From a virus (taxonomy: Duplodnaviria > Heunggongvirae > Uroviricota > Caudoviricetes), in the IMG/VR virus record IMGVR_UViG_2734482568_000006: DNA of 47,553 nucleotides; one strand, given 5' to 3'. The stretch's first letter is position 1. Every line of letters starts with the position of its first letter. Position numbers and translations under genes: made by a program. The notes under the pieces were generated by a model. That model was given only the letters and a program-made list of their open reading frames with translations, had not been told where the DNA came from and made no database searches. Of the stretch, positions 8,543 through 39,654 are shown in pieces.

Positions 8543-9280
8543 TCATTCACTCTCTTTCAAACCAGTTTTAACTGTTTGTGGTTTTGGGTAAGGCTGGACT
8601 TTGAATAGCTTTGTGTTAAGGCGTTTTCTGGCTCTCTTGTCCAGAAACCGGATGTAACGAAACTGACGGAATTTATGAACACTGGCTCTGTCGATATTAG
8701 CCCGCAGATGTTCACCTCGCTGTCCTCCTCGTTTGATTGCATTCTTGCAAATCTCGTGATACCACTCGCCATCAAGTTCATAGAATGTTGTTTCATGACT
8801 GCCTACATAATCAAAATTGCTTGCCTGGTACACGACACCAAGACAGCCACAACGCTCATCTGCAAACGACTGAACCCACTGCACCTGCGGATAAAGTTGT
8901 CTGATTAGTTTGAGCGCGTAACTGATTGCCCTTGATTCGGAGTTTCTCGGCATACAGTCATGCAGCCATAACCGGTTAAGCTCCATATATTCGCGGTTCT
9001 GCGTGCCAGTTACGACGCGTGCACCATTGTTTGGATTAAGGGCATAACCCCATTGCATTACGCCAACCAGCTCCCGTTCTGAAAATATGCCCAGATGAAG
9101 GTAGGAATTATTTACGAAACGATGGCTGTAATGTTTATTGACGACGACCAGCCGGGCCAGCCAGCAACTTATTGTCTCAACCCGTAACTCACGGGAGCCA
9201 TAACCGACGATATTGTCGTTATAGTGAATAAGTTCAGGCGTGCTGATGATACGGGATGTAACTTGCTTTCTGTTCCCCAC
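8543..9280 (-). CDS. mom: Mom-like DNA modification protein (start uncertain, probably GTG at 9280)
   Basis: Position at the prophage end directly downstream of and overlapping a Com-like zinc-finger gene, as in Mu; size about 245 aa from the first in-frame GTG after the com region. The ORF track gives a longer 310-aa frame from 9475. Confidence 0.55.
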
Positions 9281-9434
9281 GACAGGATTTCCTTGTGTAT
9301 GTGGGGTGCTCTGTGGCGCTCTGAGATGTGATTTGATTGAGGGTTTTACAGCGCGGACATTTAACTTCCAGATAACTGAAGCTGGCTCGTGCCAGTAGCT
9401 TGTTACAATGTCGGCACCGTATGTTTCGATACAT
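9234..9434 (-). CDS. com: Com-like zinc-finger translational activator of mom
   Basis: [32 protein letters not shown] resembles Mu Com (..IRCKNCNKLLFKA..IEIRCPRCK..). AGGAGG lies 10 nt upstream of the ATG at 9434, and the 3-prime end overlaps the mom frame. Confidence 0.7.
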
Positions 9435-9570
9435 GGCCGCATAACCTCCTGCTTTGTTGTTGATATCTTTATCACTCAATCGATCGACAAAAACGATCGA
9501 TTTGATTTATTTAATTGATACAACAAATAACACGAAATGTCATTAGCGAAAATTTATGAGTTTGATCACT
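9435..9570 (-). promoter_or_regulatory. Candidate mom-operon promoter region with clustered GATC (Dam) sites
   Basis: GATC at 9482-9485, 9495-9498 (within cgatcgacaaaaacgatcg) and 9564-9567, upstream of com. Mu Pmom is controlled by Dam methylation of upstream GATC sites. Confidence 0.4.
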
Positions 9571-9690
9571 AATTTTAAACGGTGCTGTAACGCATAAGTG
9601 CTGAATGATTGTACATTTGAATACCGCAAAGCAAACAAATCAACTAATTTATAGAAGTCAATTGGTTAATTGCCAGCGTAAGAGGCTGCT

Positions 9691-27686: not shown

Positions 27687-28819
27687 TATTGCATTTCCTC
27701 TTTCATTTTCAGGAACTCGGCTTCGGTTTTACCCAACAGACGTGCGGCGGCGATATCTTCAGCCGACAGCACAGCGGTGGCGGTCTTTTTATCCGGCACG
27801 GTTACGGTGTCGGTCTGAAGAGTGGTCAGAGCCGCAACCGGCTGGCGGGCGTCAAGCTGTGCAGAAAGTGCCGCGACGCCAATCTGTTGTCCGAGTCCTT
27901 CCATGTATCCGCGTTCGCTTTTGAAAATGCGTCCTTCGGACTCGGCCTTATCCAGCAACTGCTCCAGCGTGGTGCTGCCGTGTTGTGCCGACAGCGCGGC
28001 ATATTCGGTACGCAGGGCGTTATACGTCTCAACGGGCACATATTTCGTCAGATCAATAGTGCCGCCAGTTGGTGTGCCTTTTGCGGTTTCCAGTTCTGCC
28101 GACAGGCTGGCAACCTGCGTTTTCAGGGTGTCGTGCGCATCCGCACGGGTTTTGATCCCGGTAAGGGCAGACAGCGCCGCCGTGCCCAGTTCCGGTGTAA
28201 ATTCGTCACCGTCAGCCACGGTCAGACCGAGCGCCGTCAGCAACTGGCGTAATTGCTCATTCATGGGGGATTGCTCCTGAGAAGGGGAAACGACATAGAG
28301 ATCATCAGCACTGAGTGCCGCGACAGGGTTCATACCCGTAATACCCGGATCATTCGTCAGGGAAGCCATGCGCAACAGGTAGGGTTCCCCGGTGTCAGCG
28401 AAATAATGCATATATGCAGACAGATAGGCATATTCACGGTCATCAATATGTTTTTGTGCCTGTGGTGTCCATTCAGGTTTAATGAAAATCCCCTGACCCT
28501 CACGCCATTCGATGTTTTCCGGCTTAACCCATCCTGCAGCAATAGCCTTGAATCCGTTTTTCTGCGCATTCACGGAGTGATGGTCATAATCAATCAGTAA
28601 CGGCTGATGCAGGGCGGAAAGCCCGGCTTTCATCCGGTTACAGGCGGATTCGTTAATCAGCCAGCCTTCAGTCGGTTTTTCCGGGCGACCGTCACGGGCC
28701 TTTACCCGACCGGCTGGCAGTAACTGACACCATCCGTCGCCGGATGCAGTCAGCGAAGCTGAAAGCACGGCTAAACCGGAGGGGCGATTTGCGTCTTTTG
28801 GGTGATTTTCTGTCTTCAT
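27686..28819 (-). CDS. Head maturation protease / scaffold protein (Mu I-like)
   Basis: 377 aa with coiled-coil-rich C-terminal half; position upstream of the major capsid gene. Confidence 0.75.
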   Translation of the reverse strand: MKTENHPKDANRPSGLAVLSASLTASGDGWCQLLPAGRVKARDGRPEKPTEGWLINESACNRMKAGLSALHQPLLIDYDHHSVNAQKNGFKAIAAGWVKPENIEWREGQGIFIKPEWTPQAQKHIDDREYAYLSAYMHYFADTGEPYLLRMASLTNDPGITGMNPVAALSADDLYVVSPSQEQSPMNEQLRQLLTALGLTVADGDEFTPELGTAALSALTGIKTRADAHDTLKTQVASLSAELETAKGTPTGGTIDLTKYVPVETYNALRTEYAALSAQHGSTTLEQLLDKAESEGRIFKSERGYMEGLGQQIGVAALSAQLDARQPVAALTTLQTDTVTVPDKKTATAVLSAEDIAAARLLGKTEAEFLKMKEEMQ

Positions 28820-28996
28820 ACCGGCAGCATAAGCCGGGTATTTTTGGGGCTGGTTTTGCGGGACTTCAGAAAGTGCTGACAGGGGGGGAATGAGAAAGGC
28901 GCTTCACGCAGATTTTAAAGCCCGTTAAATACAGGTTAGAAAATCACGACACGCGCCTGAAGGGGGTAAGGTAATACGTTTGCATACCTTAAACCA

Positions 28997-29509: not shown

Positions 29510-29589
29510 GGTCAGTGTACGCTTAACTGGTAAAGTCGGTGCCTGCCTCCGGGTGGATCATGTATGCGGGTTCGACCCCCGCCACTGAC
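29510..29589 (+). ncRNA. tRNA-like structured element (T-arm plus 7-bp acceptor-type stem; not a canonical cloverleaf by eye)
   Basis: gtcagtg at 29510-29516 pairs with cactgac at 29582-29588; gcggg-ttcgacc-cccgc at 29565-29581 forms a T-arm-like hairpin with a TTCGA loop. It is antisense to the phage late genes, in the F-G intergenic gap. Confidence 0.3.
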
Positions 29590-29591
29590 CG

Positions 29592-36480: not shown

Positions 36481-36981
36481 TCAGACTTTCGGCAAATCGT
36501 AACGACATAACCATTCATCCGCCGAACGGCGGGCCTCAAGACCGGGGAGTTTTACCCCCTTTGAATAAATCCAGCGGATATACTGCTTACAGGACGCGGG
36601 CATCTGCCCGGCATTGATAAGGCGCAGGAGCGTGGAGTTGCGAAAGTTCGTTTCACCGGCCCAGAAAATCCAGGAGGCCAGCGCCACCGTCTGACCACGG
36701 GTAAGCGGCACCTGAACATGACGATCGATAGCCGCAAAGGCCCATTTCATGTCCTTTTCCAGCAGCTCCAGACACTCTTCATCAGTTTTTGTCATCCCCG
36801 GTTTCACATCCGGGCCGGTATGGCCGTAACAGATGGTGGGGGTGCCGGTGGGATCAATGTACGTGGTGTTTTCTTTCCCTTCCCAGTAGCCGGTGTAGTG
36901 CGTGGCAATGGTGAACGTCCCGGCTCCGGCCAGAACAAGGGCAATCAGCTTTTTACGCAGGGGTGCGGGGAGTTTTGGCAT
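36481..36981 (-). CDS. SAR endolysin (phage lysozyme with N-terminal signal-anchor-release domain)
   Basis: N-terminal weakly hydrophobic segment (LIALVLAGAGTFTIATHY) followed by lysozyme-like core (EGKENTTYIDPTGTPTICYGHTG). Confidence 0.8.
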   Translation of the reverse strand: MPKLPAPLRKKLIALVLAGAGTFTIATHYTGYWEGKENTTYIDPTGTPTICYGHTGPDVKPGMTKTDEECLELLEKDMKWAFAAIDRHVQVPLTRGQTVALASWIFWAGETNFRNSTLLRLINAGQMPASCKQYIRWIYSKGVKLPGLEARRSADEWLCRYDLPKV

Positions 36982-37052
36982 TGTTACGCTGTCTCATGGT
37001 GTTCTCTGAGTCAGCGTAACCGTGAGGAAAAGGGGGCAGGATTTGCGGAATA

Positions 37053-37475
37053 TCAGAAAAGCCGTGGCTGCGTGCGTTCCTGATGCAGGCGACGCTGGTT
37101 GCGGATAACGGAGTAAATCTGCGTCTCTGACATCTGGTAGTGGCGGCGCAGGGTTTCAATTTTTTCGCCCTGGCTCCAGCGGGAAAAAATTTCATTATTG
37201 CGCAGTTCGGTGAAAAGGGATTCACCGACCGGGAGATAATAACCACGCCCGCCCATGTACCCGGCCTGTGCGGCTGCAACCTTACGGGCAAGCATTCCCG
37301 CCTGAGCAGGTTCAATCCCCTGACGGTGCAGTTCAGCACTGATCACATCAACCAGGTCCCGCAGCGTGCCGGGCCAGTTCTTTTTCAGCTCATCATCAGG
37401 AATATCATCCAGACGGTCAATCAGCGCGTGCAGCTGTTCGCTGTCACCAAACATGCTCATCTGTGTTTCAGCCAT
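37053..37475 (-). CDS. Mor/C-family transcriptional activator (C-like by position and length)
   Basis: C-terminal half GGRGYYLPVGESLFTELRNNEIFSRW...YQMSETQIYSVIRNQRR resembles the Mu Mor/C DNA-binding region; 140 aa; preceded by an intrinsic terminator. Confidence 0.7.
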   Translation of the reverse strand: MAETQMSMFGDSEQLHALIDRLDDIPDDELKKNWPGTLRDLVDVISAELHRQGIEPAQAGMLARKVAAAQAGYMGGRGYYLPVGESLFTELRNNEIFSRWSQGEKIETLRRHYQMSETQIYSVIRNQRRLHQERTQPRLF

Positions 37476-37504
37476 ACCCGCCTCCGGTCATCATTACACA
37501 GGGC

Positions 37505-37541
37505 AAGTTTAAAATAAAAATCCCGCGCTGTGGCGGGATTT
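37505..37541 (-). terminator. Rho-independent terminator between the gemA-like and Mor/C-like genes
   Basis: Minus-strand RNA forms aaatcccgc/gcgggattt stem (9 bp) followed by a U-rich run (ttattttaaactt). Confidence 0.5.
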
Positions 37542-37545
37542 GGGG

Positions 37546-38058
37546 TTAACGGGGGAATGATTTTTCATACAGCCTGCAAACACGCTCATAACTCATCACT
37601 GCACGTTCCGACATATCCAGGGCTGCCAGCATTTTGCGGCGGTGCCAGCGTTTGAGACGCTCCAGCACATCAGAGGCCAGCGCGGGTTGTTGCTCCAGCC
37701 ACTGCCAGTTAGCCACACCTTCGCCGTCGTTCTGCGCGGCCGTCTGCGATTTCACCCAGCGGTTAAGGGCCGTTTCCCCGCCATCAGAGATAAATCCCTG
37801 CCGGTGCATCACTTTCCAGATGGCGCGAATTTTGGCGGTCACCGTACCCGGTTTTAAGGCCCGGTTAACCGGCTTCTGACGCACTTTAAAACCGCGTTTT
37901 TTGAAAACATCCAGCACGCGGGATAACTCACCGGGTGACATATCACGGCAACTGGATTTGCCGGTGGCTGCCAGCAGCGCGGATGTATAGGTATCATGGT
38001 CAAGCTGTAGATCGCGTTTTGCGACATGTATTAAGGTAATCAGGGAAGCGCGATTCAT
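37546..38058 (-). CDS. gemA: GemA-like protein (Mu gp16 / DUF1018 family)
   Basis: LITLIHVAKRDLQLDHDTYTSALLAATGKSSCRDMSPGELSRVLDVFKKRGF matches the conserved N-terminal signature of Mu gp16-like proteins. Confidence 0.6.
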   Translation of the reverse strand: MNRASLITLIHVAKRDLQLDHDTYTSALLAATGKSSCRDMSPGELSRVLDVFKKRGFKVRQKPVNRALKPGTVTAKIRAIWKVMHRQGFISDGGETALNRWVKSQTAAQNDGEGVANWQWLEQQPALASDVLERLKRWHRRKMLAALDMSERAVMSYERVCRLYEKSFPR

Positions 38059-38070
38059 TATCGTGGCTCC

Positions 38071-38100
38071 ATAAAAAATGGGCGGTGTTACCGCACCGCC
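38071..38100 (-). terminator. Rho-independent terminator upstream of gemA
   Basis: Minus-strand RNA ggcggtg-cggtaa-caccgcc hairpin followed by cattttttat. Confidence 0.5.
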
Positions 38101-38128
38101 ATGTCAATTAACATAAAAGGAAAAATCT

Positions 38129-38368
38129 ATGTCAGATATAAAAAATGCACTTGATGTTGCCGCATTCACAATGGCTGGAAATCTTATGGTAACCCTGTTC
38201 GATAAGGGGCTGATTTCCCGTGAGGAGGCAATACATATTATCAATCTCGCTCAAAAAAACTCTACCCCGGAAAATGCAGAAGATATCCAGGATGGCTCAT
38301 ATATTAATACCGACTGGCATTTCGACAATCTCCGGGCCTGTATGGGGATTACCGCTGAAAAAGATTAA
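38129..38368 (+). CDS. Hypothetical protein (79 aa) on the strand opposite to the phage early genes
   Basis: ATG with aaaagg RBS; 3-prime end overlaps the convergent minus-strand gene by 20 bp. Confidence 0.45.
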   Translation: MSDIKNALDVAAFTMAGNLMVTLFDKGLISREEAIHIINLAQKNSTPENAEDIQDGSYINTDWHFDNLRACMGITAEKD

Positions 38369-38636
38369 AAATTTTTGCATAATGTTCAGATGTAAGAATT
38401 GCTGAACCATCAACACCGAGCCTACGGCGAACGTATTCCTCGCGGGCTATTTTATTATCCAGAGATACAGCATCCTTAATCAGGTTAATCTCCCGCTCCA
38501 TTATCAAAAGGGCTTCTCTGGCTGCAAGATTTTCTTTTATCGCATATTCGATAATGTCCCGCATACGTTCAAGCATGCCGATTTTAGCCAGTTCTTCGTC
38601 GATAGATTTAGGCGCAAATTTGATTTCTTTTTCCAT
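38349..38636 (-). CDS. Hypothetical helical protein (about 95 aa)
   Basis: Start placed at MEKEIKF, immediately after the stop of the upstream cysteine-rich ORF. Confidence 0.45.
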   Translation of the reverse strand: MEKEIKFAPKSIDEELAKIGMLERMRDIIEYAIKENLAAREALLIMEREINLIKDAVSLDNKIAREEYVRRRLGVDGSAILTSEHYAKIFNLFQR

Positions 38637-38637
38637 A

Positions 38638-38781
38638 TTATTCATCCTCACAATTTATACATGCAGTGTCGTCGCCCATATCGCAGTGGTTACATTTTAT
38701 CTCACCACAATGTGGGCACTCTTTCAGATACTCCGGGTCCTCATTTCCACAGGTGGGACATTCAACAATTTGCTCATCCAT
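38638..38781 (-). CDS. Cysteine-rich zinc-ribbon-like small protein (47 aa), absent from the ORF track
   Basis: MDEQIVECPTCGNEDPEYLKECPHCGEIKCNHCDMGDDTACINCEDE with four CxxC pairs; start overlaps the upstream gene end (ATGGATGA) and the stop abuts the next start. Confidence 0.4.
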   Translation of the reverse strand: MDEQIVECPTCGNEDPEYLKECPHCGEIKCNHCDMGDDTACINCEDE

Positions 38782-39106
38782 TATGTATCCCCTGTAATTC
38801 CGGCAAGGCCGAAAGATGGCACCAGTGCGTCACCTGTCCGTCCTCATCTTCAAGGCAGGCTCCGGTTTCTTCATCAATAAAAAAGCCTTCATACCCCATA
38901 TGGCCGATGCGCAGTTCCTGTTGGTCACCATACTGAACAATCAGCACGACAGCCTCCATATCAGGCGGAAATGCGTCATCCAGTGAATGCCAGGGATAAC
39001 CGCGCAAATCCCCGAAATAAACGCCGGTCAGCGTTCCGCCACAGAGCGGCATTCCGGCGGCACACACAAGAGGTTCATCTGATTCAACAAATAAGGTCGT
39101 TATCAT
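38774..39106 (-). CDS. Hypothetical protein (110 aa)
   Basis: Translationally coupled within the early accessory operon; no recognised domain. Confidence 0.45.
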   Translation of the reverse strand: MITTLFVESDEPLVCAAGMPLCGGTLTGVYFGDLRGYPWHSLDDAFPPDMEAVVLIVQYGDQQELRIGHMGYEGFFIDEETGACLEDEDGQVTHWCHLSALPELQGIHNG

Positions 39107-39654
39107 GGCGTTAACTCCCGTAATACAGCGTCCTCGGCAGTCCGGCGACGGTAATAAACTGCGTGAGCAGAATGTTCAGATATTCCAAACTTTTCGCCAA
39201 TTTCCCGGAATGACAGACGGCGTGGGTAATCGGAATCACGCAGCTCACGTATAAGACGTACATCATCATCAGATATGCGCGTGCCGGGGCGTAACTCTCC
39301 GCACTTTGTTAATCCAGCACCAATCATTCCTGCCCGACATCTGACAGAATCTTTATTACGTCCGAGATATTCTCCCATTTGCTGGCAGGTCATTGTTCTG
39401 GCATTTTTTCGAATAAACTTATCTTCATCAGGTGTAAATCTTGGGTGTTTATATTTCAGTAACTCCGGGTATGAACTGCGCAATACACCAGTCCGGTTAT
39501 ATACAGCCCAGACAGTTCTTTTTATTCTGGCAGCAATATCCTTAACCGGGGTGGATGAATAAAGCGCAATCAGCAGCGCATCTTCTTCAGGTGTCCACGG
39601 ACGGACATGAGCGGGGGCGCGACCTTTTAGTCCCATGGGTTGTAATTTCATCAT
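39103..39654 (-). CDS. Putative DNA-binding regulator with Mor/C-like C-terminal helix-turn-helix
   Basis: C-terminus DDVRLIRELRDSDYPRRLSFREIGEKFGISEHSAHAVYYRRR resembles the Mor/C-type HTH; N-terminal WTPEEDALLIALY motif. Confidence 0.45.
   Translation of the reverse strand: MMKLQPMGLKGRAPAHVRPWTPEEDALLIALYSSTPVKDIAARIKRTVWAVYNRTGVLRSSYPELLKYKHPRFTPDEDKFIRKNARTMTCQQMGEYLGRNKDSVRCRAGMIGAGLTKCGELRPGTRISDDDVRLIRELRDSDYPRRLSFREIGEKFGISEHSAHAVYYRRRTAEDAVLRELTP

Follow-up and report, generated by a model that had tools for sequence, protein, structure and literature searches.

A single C-type late activator gene follows a predicted terminator downstream of gemA in a family of Mu-like prophages

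The comparisons reported here indicate that, in this Mu-like prophage of E. coli, the region between gemA and the endolysin gene (lys) is probably best explained as a Mu-like early-to-late junction serving a two-tier programme (early, late), as against the three tiers of Mu. Within the 47.5-kb stretch of DNA that was analysed (the window), the minus-strand order is gemA, a predicted terminator, a 140-aa Mor/C-family gene and the endolysin gene (Table 1), and the reading frames of the original prediction, among them that of a 183-aa protein, lie on the minus strand at the coordinates given. The prophage family, which we take to be that of Sp18, a Mu-like prophage in O157 Sakai, was found in 231 of 5,426 complete E. 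coli genomes (about 4%), and the matches include O157:H7 strains. So far the lytic regulation of this family has been assumed to be Mu-like. If Mor is absent and a C-type activator stands alone behind a terminator, the early/middle/late model of Mu would not be transferable to these phages, which would then offer a simpler natural system for asking how a Mor/C activator first gets switched on, and whether replication-clamp coupling can replace a dedicated middle regulator. The single-activator layout itself is a refinement inside a well-known family and brings no new mechanism.

Table 1. Positions in the window of the genes, predicted terminators or hairpins and candidate promoters discussed in the text
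Feature	Position	Strand	Details
Third, weaker candidate late promoter	12859-12906	-	Box TTTTGAATTTCCGCAAAAC, −10 TATTCT
Second candidate late promoter, upstream of head protease gene	28826-28872	-	Box TTTCTGAAGTCCCGCAAAACC, −10 TATGCT
Endolysin, first late gene	36481-36981	-	Pfam Phage_lysozyme 1e-36
Candidate late promoter upstream of lys	37013-37059	-	Box TTTCTGATATTCCGCAAATCC, −10 TACGCT
Single Mor/C-family late activator, 140 aa, Mu C orthologue	37053-37475	-	Pfam PF08765
Candidate P_C	37506-37534	-	−10-like TAAACT 37511-37506; poor −35-like GCCACA 37534-37529
Predicted intrinsic terminator	37508-37541 (stem 37541-37518 + T tract)	-	9-bp stem, 6-nt loop, T tail
gemA, 170 aa	37546-38058	-	Pfam GemA 1.8e-28; 46% identity to Mu GemA
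Hairpin GGCGGTG-CGGTAA-CACCGCC + T tract	38071-38100	-	-13.3 kcal/mol; directly 5' of gemA ribosome-binding site
79-aa gene, moron-like	38129-38368	+	phrog_32893 E = 1e-45; annotated in RefSeq
183-aa protein, three Myb/SANT-type HTH repeats, early-region gene	39103-39654	-	PHROG 323

The 140-aa protein matches the Pfam Mor profile PF08765 with 106.9 bits (cut-off 24.9) over profile positions 2-107 of 107, and phrog_532, ‘late transcriptional activator’, at 1.4e-44. When the Mor/C profile, Mu Mor and Mu C were run with filters off against every six-frame ORF of 30 aa or more (912 in all), this protein was the sole match and no second Mor/C gene appeared in the window, in keeping with the earlier claim that the region holds only one; mor and the Mu genes E18-E20 are absent from the phage. 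A survey of about 40 related loci from E. coli, Salmonella and Citrobacter, whose activators are 54-100% identical to the one here, gave one Mor/C match each within ±5 kb, and all of these relatives carry gemA, a single activator gene and lysozyme in that order, so that one Mor/C gene, not the two paralogues of the Mu type, is found in the window and in every related locus. Genome contigs searched with a single protein as query yielded no matches, and an alignment-based profile search of them yielded one Citrobacter locus. By sequence and position, Mu C and not Mor is the orthologue of the 140-aa protein, because its identity is 40% to Mu C (over 136 aa) and 28% to Mor, it has the length of Mu C and a conserved GGR-Y-P-G linker, it groups with Mu C in a neighbour-joining tree (no support values) in which Mor falls with the Vibrio and BcepMu activators, and its gene sits immediately upstream of lys. 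Members of the Mor/C family are short (about 100-150 aa), with an acidic N-terminal half, a basic C-terminal half that holds the helix–turn–helix and a glycine-rich β-strand linker between them, and the 140-aa protein conforms: Mor and C have the same residues at G75, G76, Y80, P82 and G84, and D+E/K+R is 13/7 over the first 70 residues and 7/11 over the remaining 70, much as in Mu C. Proteins of the Mor/C family are reported to carry β-clamp-binding motifs, an N-terminal Qx[D/E][L/M]F and a C-terminal QPDLF (PMC12867686). The 140-aa protein has candidate motifs of this type at the positions seen in Mu C, QMSMF near the N-terminus, which fits the general QL[SD]LF consensus, and QPRLF near the C-terminus.

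The intrinsic terminator that had been proposed between gemA and the activator gene holds up as a prediction. It begins 5 nt past the gemA stop codon, within a gemA-to-activator spacer of 70 bp, and reads AAATCCCGC-CACAGC-GCGGGATTT followed by TTATTTTAAA, with six G-C pairs among the nine of the stem and the tail UUAUUUUAAA. The RNA fold is -13.5 kcal/mol (z = -4.5; 0 of 200 shuffles as stable), compared with -12.2 for Mu t9.2. Since a simple terminator scan returned 10 candidates where chance would give 9 and is not enough alone, the call is based on stem quality, intergenic position, orientation and conservation in relatives. Hairpin and T tract form the best-conserved part of the spacer; the stem is almost invariant among relatives, with compensatory outer pairs in L049 only, and the exact pattern is restricted in IMG/VR to this phage family. 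No Rfam family matches the terminator, and Rfam and ARAGORN gave no matches in the window. By position the predicted terminator is the counterpart of Mu t9.2. A further hairpin precedes gemA, and its GGCGGTG...CACCGCC arms are kept in Mu and in L010, L040, L044, L047, L048 and L049. The 79-aa moron-like gene beyond it, confined to a subset of relatives, diverges from gemA and converges on, and overlaps, a 100-aa early ORF.

Mor/C proteins activate sigma-70 promoters that have no −35 by way of an imperfect dyad centred near −43.5. The candidate activator promoter, P_C, has its −35-like GCCACA inside the hairpin loop and, after a 17-bp spacer, a TAAACT −10-like hexamer that overlaps the terminator T tract; it agrees with the sigma-70 consensus at 7 of 12 positions and was missed by the promoter scan. 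With no activator, such a promoter would be either constitutive, which would be awkward in a lysogen, or very weak. TA-rich hexamers are expected by chance within a T-rich terminator tail. The homologous −10 position reads TAAACT, TATAGT, TATATT or TATACT in four clades, with GATTAT nearby in L049, and the hexamer is conserved across clades while the 5' UTR diverges. A reverse-strand gene is inserted between gemA and the activator gene in L020, L040, L041 and L044-L048, and the block of right arm, T tract and −10 stays beside the activator gene despite moron or IS insertions. In these relatives the gemA-side copy has lost the −10 but still has the hairpin (-13 to -16 kcal/mol) and the T tract; the activator-side copy of L041 and L044-L048 retains the −10 with a hairpin down to -7 to -11 kcal/mol and no U tail, and that of L020 and L040 still folds at -13 to -16 kcal/mol. 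Because the −10 remains next to the activator gene in spite of gene and IS insertions, these alignments suggest that the spacer is a terminator/promoter composite like Mu t9.2/Pm. Another candidate, a Pm-like promoter with −10 TGTAAT (37498-37493) that would put the hairpin dyad at −43.5, was dropped in favour of the conserved TAAACT because it is not kept in the 83%-identical O157-type relatives L009 and L032, where the hexamer reads AACGCG.

Candidate late promoters lie further downstream. The one upstream of lys overlaps the activator stop codon, its box and spacing recur in all clades of relatives, and its box resembles the C site of Mu Plys, TTTCCTGTCACCATAATCC. It shares with the candidate upstream of the head protease gene a box-to-−10 distance of 26, and the combination CTGA-N4-CCGCA occurs on the coding strand only twice, both times at the expected intergenic sites; a weight matrix for late promoters found just its two training sites and so gives no independent promoter count. 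The third candidate precedes a DUF6645 gene, which itself follows the invertase gene. No terminator was found in the window between the activator gene and lys, and consequently any activator transcript would also enter the lysis genes, unlike in Mu and in the Salmonella and Citrobacter relatives. A shared box, CAAATCCYGCC, was considered and rejected: it has three exact matches, but the two that precede the activator gene and lys are the sites from which the pattern was derived, and when up to one mismatch was allowed five occurrences were found against 2.9 expected, which is not above chance.

The 183-aa protein had been credited with a Mor/C-like C-terminal helix–turn–helix (HTH), and here the original prediction fails. 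Of the two proteins aligned with Mor and C, the 140-aa protein belongs to the family and the 183-aa protein does not. The latter has no Pfam Mor match, its only Pfam matches being sub-threshold ones to Myb/AsnC-type HTH domains; BLASTP gave E = 0.09 with Mor and 1.3 with C, a Mor/C profile search at E up to 10 did not match it, and hhalign of its family against Mor/C returned a probability of 4.3%. The profile of its family finds the R2R3 repeats of c-Myb at E = 5e-6, and the AlphaFold model (pLDDT 78.8) has three three-helix bundles and no β linker, the C-terminal HTH being the third of three internal Myb/SANT-like repeats. As in c-Myb R2R3 the HTH repeats are tandem three-helix units; the c-Myb-like W-x-EED start is invariant in repeat 1, and repeat 2 is degenerate (FTPDED in the window). 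Unlike c-Myb the protein is bacterial and phage-encoded, and its third repeat looks nearer to the HTH of AsnC or of sigma region 4. Mor/C proteins combine an N-terminal dimerisation domain, a β linker and one HTH; on profile similarity, repeat number and the missing β linker we reject the 183-aa protein as a relative of Mor; in sequence and predicted fold it is a Myb/SANT-type triple-HTH protein, and as such we place it outside the late-activation circuit. The proposal that the late cascade is wired unlike that of Mu thus holds in so far as one C-type activator stands behind a terminator after gemA with no Mor-to-C pair, and falls in so far as it made the 183-aa protein a second Mor/C-like regulator.

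Other readings of the junction deserve consideration. The spacer may contain no promoter and work purely as an attenuator, the activator being made only by early read-through whose amount sets the late delay. We think this possible but doubtful: it would account for hairpin and T tract being the most conserved elements there, and it sits well with a −10-like hexamer in a T/A-rich tail, where chance hexamers arise, and with a spacer of only 70 bp lacking a usable −35 and a promoter call, but many relatives that carry a 560-740-bp reverse-strand gene together with its own terminator copy still keep the −10 block by the activator gene, and an essential activator is unlikely to depend wholly on transcripts that must pass a convergent gene and two hairpins. 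We also regard it as improbable that the C-type activator switches on its own gene by binding the left arm of the terminator (CCCCAAATCC) as a late-type box, which would make a self-reinforcing one-protein switch. The stretch CAAATCCCGCC (37542-37532) does match the lys-upstream CAAATCCTGCC at 10 of 11 positions, a box like CGGAAAACC is retained upstream of the activator gene in the insertion relatives, and P_C has no −35, as in Mor- and C-dependent promoters; however, box and −10 are 30 bp apart and not the 26 bp of the late promoters (4 bp off), P_C lacks the CCGCA core that marks the late box, and when the best match between P_C and Plys was tested by shuffling in nine clades it reached significance in none (p of 0.06 to 0.9), with inconsistent offsets.

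Similarly unlikely, in our judgement, is the broader proposal that a 34-bp palindromic element doubles as the early terminator and as the control region of a promoter driven by the C-type activator or another factor; were it true, the Mor tier would be replaced by a self-reinforcing, clamp-coupled one-protein switch, and the insertion-split terminator/promoter copies in relatives would be a natural dissection of both functions. Least credible of all is that the 183-aa HTH protein stands in for Mor without being homologous to it and turns on the promoter of the C-type gene. In favour of this, the protein binds DNA by type and is encoded in the early operon, P_C seems to require an activator, and across the complete E. 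coli genomes protein and prophage family co-occur at every site (273 places each). Against such a role, its gene is located in a variable part of the early region and the protein, besides having no similarity to Mor/C, is missing from Salmonella, Citrobacter and other relatives whose sequence upstream of the activator gene is unchanged (L006, L008, L010, L043-L046, L048 and L049) and from L040, all of which share P_C types with the carriers L041 and L047; moreover, a P2-like Citrobacter phage with no Mor/C system encodes a homologue in its early region, and mycobacteriophages have partial homologues where HNH endonuclease or methylase genes are annotated.

We therefore retain the two-tier junction as the preferred reading. 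To judge from conservation among the relatives, early transcripts would mostly end at the predicted terminator, and activator expression would come from residual read-through together with P_C, which overlaps the 3' arm and T tract of the terminator in an arrangement that mirrors Mu Pm/t9.2. The same kind of evidence suggests that the C-type protein would act at late promoters in which the box TTTCTGA-N4-CCGCAAAWCC is followed at 26 bp by a TAYGCT −10; the likely targets precede lys and the head protease gene, and there is probably a third. As candidate β-clamp-binding-type motifs stand at both positions, published work on Mu C leads us to suggest that replication coupling could give the timing that Mor gives in Mu.

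Finally, we consider the junction beside known systems. In Mu the order is gemA-mor-t9.2/Pm-E18-E20-C-Plys-lys. The present phages resemble Mu in having gemA first and a Mor/C-family activator upstream of lys; in a terminator of similar strength that ends the early unit and overlaps the next promoter region (9163-9233 against 9179-9200 in Mu); in candidate late promoters with a recognizable −10, no −35 and a box similar to the Mu C site; and in the GGCGGTG...CACCGCC hairpin 5' of gemA. They differ in having one activator tier and not two, with no mor and no E18-E20, in placing the terminator after gemA whereas Mu places it after mor, in having the −10 within the T tract whereas in Mu it lies about 10 bp past it, and in the missing terminator between the activator gene and lys. 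The layout departs from Mu, yet it is the ordinary single-activator layout of Mu-like phages, and it is less unusual than the earlier account implied, since a single Mor/C activator after gemA is common among them. BcepMu, KS10, the Pseudomonas Fc02/D3112 group, Shewanella MuM16-1, Vibrio 1.028.O and Pasteurella Pmp9 all share one Mor/C gene that ends the early region, usually after gemA, with lysis or head genes next. In BcepMu, KS10 and MuM16-1, unlike here, gemA and the activator gene overlap and are translationally coupled, no terminator lying between them, and the activators of BcepMu and of the Vibrio phage side with Mor whereas the window protein sides with C. In Pasteurella Pmp9 the spacer measures 130 bp and the activator gene is likewise followed by lysis genes, and Vibrio 1.028.O, as here, has a strong terminator hairpin directly 5' of its single Mor gene.

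The gene between gemA and the endolysin gene (lys) of this Mu-like prophage encodes a 140-aa protein (the activator) that, as judged from its sequence, is an orthologue of Mu C. Its identity to C is 40% over 136 residues, that to Mor 28%; it has a C-like length and the family-invariant GG-x3-Y-x-P-x-G linker, and splits its charge between an acidic N-terminal and a basic C-terminal part. Moreover, QMSMF and QPRLF, one at each end of the protein, correspond in position to the β-clamp-binding motifs on which Mu C function was recently shown to depend (PMC12867686). A rough neighbour-joining tree without support values placed the activator family and the Pasteurella Pmp9 protein with Mu C, and Mu Mor with the BcepMu and Vibrio 1.028.O proteins, each the single activator of its phage. 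The activator gene is the only Mor/C gene in the window: of all 912 ORFs of 30 aa or more in the six frames, it alone was matched in unfiltered searches with Mu C, with Mu Mor and with a Mor/C profile. Among about 40 related loci, with activator proteins 54–100% identical, every locus reaching far enough both ways had gemA, one Mor/C gene and then lysozyme, and no locus contained another Mor/C gene inside 5 kb.

Coordinates of genes and candidate promoters in the window
Feature	Position	Strand	Remark
183-aa ORF	39654-39103	-	
79-aa gene	38129-38368		opposite strand to phage early genes
gemA	38058-37546	-	
140-aa Mor-family gene (activator)	37475-37053	-	
Endolysin	36981-36481	-	
P_C −10-like hexamer TAAACT	37511-37506	-	candidate, from conservation
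Late promoter candidate upstream of lys	37059-37013	-	box + TACGCT −10
Late promoter candidate upstream of head protease gene	28872-28826	-	box + TATGCT −10
Third, weaker late promoter candidate upstream of DUF6645 gene (after invertase gene)	12906-12859	-	

The intrinsic terminator proposed to lie between gemA and the activator gene is upheld at the sequence level. Beginning 5 nt past the gemA stop codon, it reads AAATCCCGC-CACAGC-GCGGGATTT and then TTATTTTAAA, with an RNA fold of −13.5 kcal/mol (z = −4.5; 0 of 200 shuffles as stable), compared with −12.2 kcal/mol for t9.2, the early terminator of Mu. Since a generic terminator scan over an 8-kb stretch was not above chance (10 found, 9 expected), we place weight on how good this predicted terminator is as a hairpin and on how well relatives have conserved it. 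The hairpin is nearly unchanged across the E. coli, Salmonella and Citrobacter clades, and in the related locus L049 its outer pairs have changed in a compensatory way (CCCATCCCGC/GCGGGATGGG, −22.3 kcal/mol); a stable hairpin was not found in another relative, L008. In an IMG/VR search the exact pattern was confined to this prophage family. A second hairpin, GGCGGTG-N6-CACCGCC (38071-38100), lies directly 5' of the gemA ribosome-binding site. It is common to Mu (L002, 8193-8212), where it falls inside the annotated 'semi-early promoter', and to many relatives, GemA itself being only 46% identical, and it occurs among relatives only where the start codon of a reverse-strand gene (CAT on this strand) sits just upstream.

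The terminator may also contain the promoter of the activator gene, here termed P_C. When the 90 nt preceding the activator start codon were aligned, 25 distinct sequences resulted, in which the hairpin loop, right arm, T tract and, at one position, a −10-like hexamer (TAAACT in E. coli, TATAGT or TATATT in Salmonella/Citrobacter, TATACT in L008) form a conserved block; the 5' UTR that follows is unrecognisably diverged between clades. The only −35-like sequence, GCCACA, lies 17 bp upstream within the loop, and P_C as a whole matches the promoter consensus at 7 of 12 positions and was not among the promoter scan calls. The gemA–activator spacer (37476-37545 in the window) is an insertion hot spot in relatives. 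A 560–740-bp insert in loci L020, L040, L041 and L044-L048 carries a reverse-strand gene, these genes coding for 106-aa and 143-aa proteins, which by eye appear to begin with a signal peptide, and also for a 111–113-aa protein; in L016 the hairpin loop is interrupted by an IS4-type transposase gene, on either side of which the loop sequence appears to be directly repeated. With each of these insertions the hairpin element is duplicated. In the gemA-side copy, hairpin and T tract are intact (−13 to −16 kcal/mol) but the −10-like hexamer is missing. In the activator-side copy of L041 and L044-L048 the left arm has decayed (−7 to −11 kcal/mol, with no U tail left free), and the hexamer persists together with the T tract and right arm; the corresponding copy of L020 and L040 still folds at −13 to −16 kcal/mol. 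Since terminator and promoter functions look separated in the duplicated copies, we argue that the single-copy element of the window may do both. Mu t9.2 and the middle promoter Pm are likewise composite, the annotated Pm region (9163-9233) containing the terminator (9179-9200).

The late promoter candidates upstream of lys and of the head protease gene share one architecture, TTTCTGA-N4-CCGCAAAWCC followed by the −10, with 26 bp from the first A of AAAWCC to the −10 start. On the coding strand CTGA-N4-CCGCA has no other occurrence, and in all clades of relatives lys is preceded by the box with its spacing. The box resembles the Mu Plys region required for C activation (TTTCCTGTCACCATAATCC at −52 to −34 in the Mu sequence), and the whole fits a C-type activator that would work directly on these candidates. 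The lys-upstream box overlaps the activator stop codon. The protease-upstream −10 ends just 6 nt before the annotated head protease ATG (28817-28831, minus strand); unless the true start codon is further downstream, the mRNA would have no leader. Between the activator gene and lys (36982-37055 in the window) no terminator was found in the E. coli clades, unlike in Mu and the Salmonella/Citrobacter relatives, which have a hairpin there.

As to what turns on the activator gene itself, the most economical reading is that a small fraction of early transcripts would pass the terminator, to which P_C, weak or conditionally active, would add. An activator that switches on its own gene by binding the left arm of the terminator might be expected from the closeness of this arm (CCCCAAATCC) to the late box (CCGCAAATCC), but the left-arm box lies 30 bp from the P_C −10 instead of the 26 bp of the late promoters, and the CCGCA core is missing. 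Moreover, the best 12-nt match between P_C and the lys-upstream sequence never beat shuffled controls in nine clades (p 0.06 to 0.9), with inconsistent offsets. Given the spacing, the missing core and the shuffle test, self-activation is not supported.

For the upstream 183-aa protein the original prediction had claimed a Mor/C-like C-terminal helix-turn-helix (HTH). This likeness (LIRELRD...FREIGEKFGIS vs LIRDLRI...SELTTRYGVT) is generic HTH similarity, with E = 0.09 in a single comparison. The protein has no Pfam Mor match, only sub-threshold matches to Myb and AsnC-type HTHs, and its ORF was unmatched by the Mor/C profile even at E = 10 in the unfiltered six-frame search. A profile of 16 homologues, whose alignment revealed three internal repeats, gave an hhalign probability of 4.3% against the Mor/C alignment and E = 5e-6 against c-Myb R2R3; the AlphaFold model (pLDDT 78.8) consists of three three-helix bundles and linkers, and Foldseek found no significant match to it in the PDB, and none to Mor. 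Wherever the prophage family occurs in complete E. coli genomes, the gene is present too (273 places each), and it is missing from Salmonella, Citrobacter and metagenomic relatives, where the 110-aa gene directly follows gp12; the early region of a P2-like Citrobacter phage contains a homologue with 37% identity. Considering the lack of Mor/C similarity, the patchy presence in relatives and this P2-like homologue, we conclude that it is a cargo-type early gene and not a second Mor/C regulator. Since relatives with and without it have the same type of activator-upstream sequence, it is also unlikely to activate P_C. The predicted departure from Mu wiring stands in so far as one C-type activator lies behind a terminator, and falls where it ran through the 183-aa protein. 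For read-through aided by P_C, timing could be sharpened if the activator, as has been described for Mu C (PMC12867686), depended on clamps loaded during replication.

The window represents a stretch of E. coli chromosome with a Mu-like prophage of ~38.6 kb inserted in sgrR, 99.9% identical to prophages of several complete E. coli genomes and 78–90% identical to those of many STEC strains. Around gemA and the activator gene the minus strand is the coding strand for phage genes, the transcription order being gam, homologues of Mu gp11/gp12, the 183-aa ORF, a 110-aa ORF, a 47-aa zinc-ribbon ORF, a 100-aa Mu gp14 homologue, the opposite-strand 79-aa gene, gemA, activator, endolysin, and the remaining lysis and head genes. 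The 47-aa ORF (38638-38781, minus strand; CxxC...CxxC; phrog_5584, E = 3e-26) falls in a RefSeq annotation gap of a near-identical (99.9%) prophage and is probably an unannotated small gene. The same RefSeq source places a 'tRNA-OTHER' at ~29511-29590 (plus strand) among the head morphogenesis genes; ARAGORN found no tRNA in the window, and Rfam no family at this position. From the invertase gene to com/mom (~9400-12900) there is extra cargo (a 684-aa DUF6645 protein, DUF1378, DUF826 and a reverse-strand ORF), and two GATC sites 13 bp apart upstream of com recall the part of the Mu mom promoter that is under Dam/OxyR control. The gemA–activator module has two allelic forms in E. coli genomes, the window type (~30 genomes at ≥90% identity) and an O157/STEC type (~200 genomes at ~78% DNA identity). 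Since the activator and 183-aa genes both follow this split, whereas the endolysin is 97–98% identical at the protein level, the sequences suggest mosaic exchange at the gemA–activator–lys junction.

Compared with the Mu order gemA-mor-t9.2/Pm-E18-E19-E20-C-terminator-Plys-lys, the window is without mor and E18-E20, and its C orthologue occupies the place of mor, but behind the terminator. Since a single Mor/C activator closing the early region is the usual state of Mu-like phages, the window is a new, previously unstudied case of a known arrangement; its own features are the lack of a terminator from activator to lys in its E. coli clade, the C-type activator, and the predicted terminator/promoter composite insulating the activator from gemA. 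Elsewhere the activator gene overlaps gemA (BcepMu, KS10, Shewanella MuM16-1), the early operon includes gemA and mor (Pseudomonas Fc02), a strong terminator hairpin stands right before the single Mor-family gene (Vibrio phage 1.028.O), or a 130-bp spacer precedes an activator followed by lysis genes (Pasteurella Pmp9).
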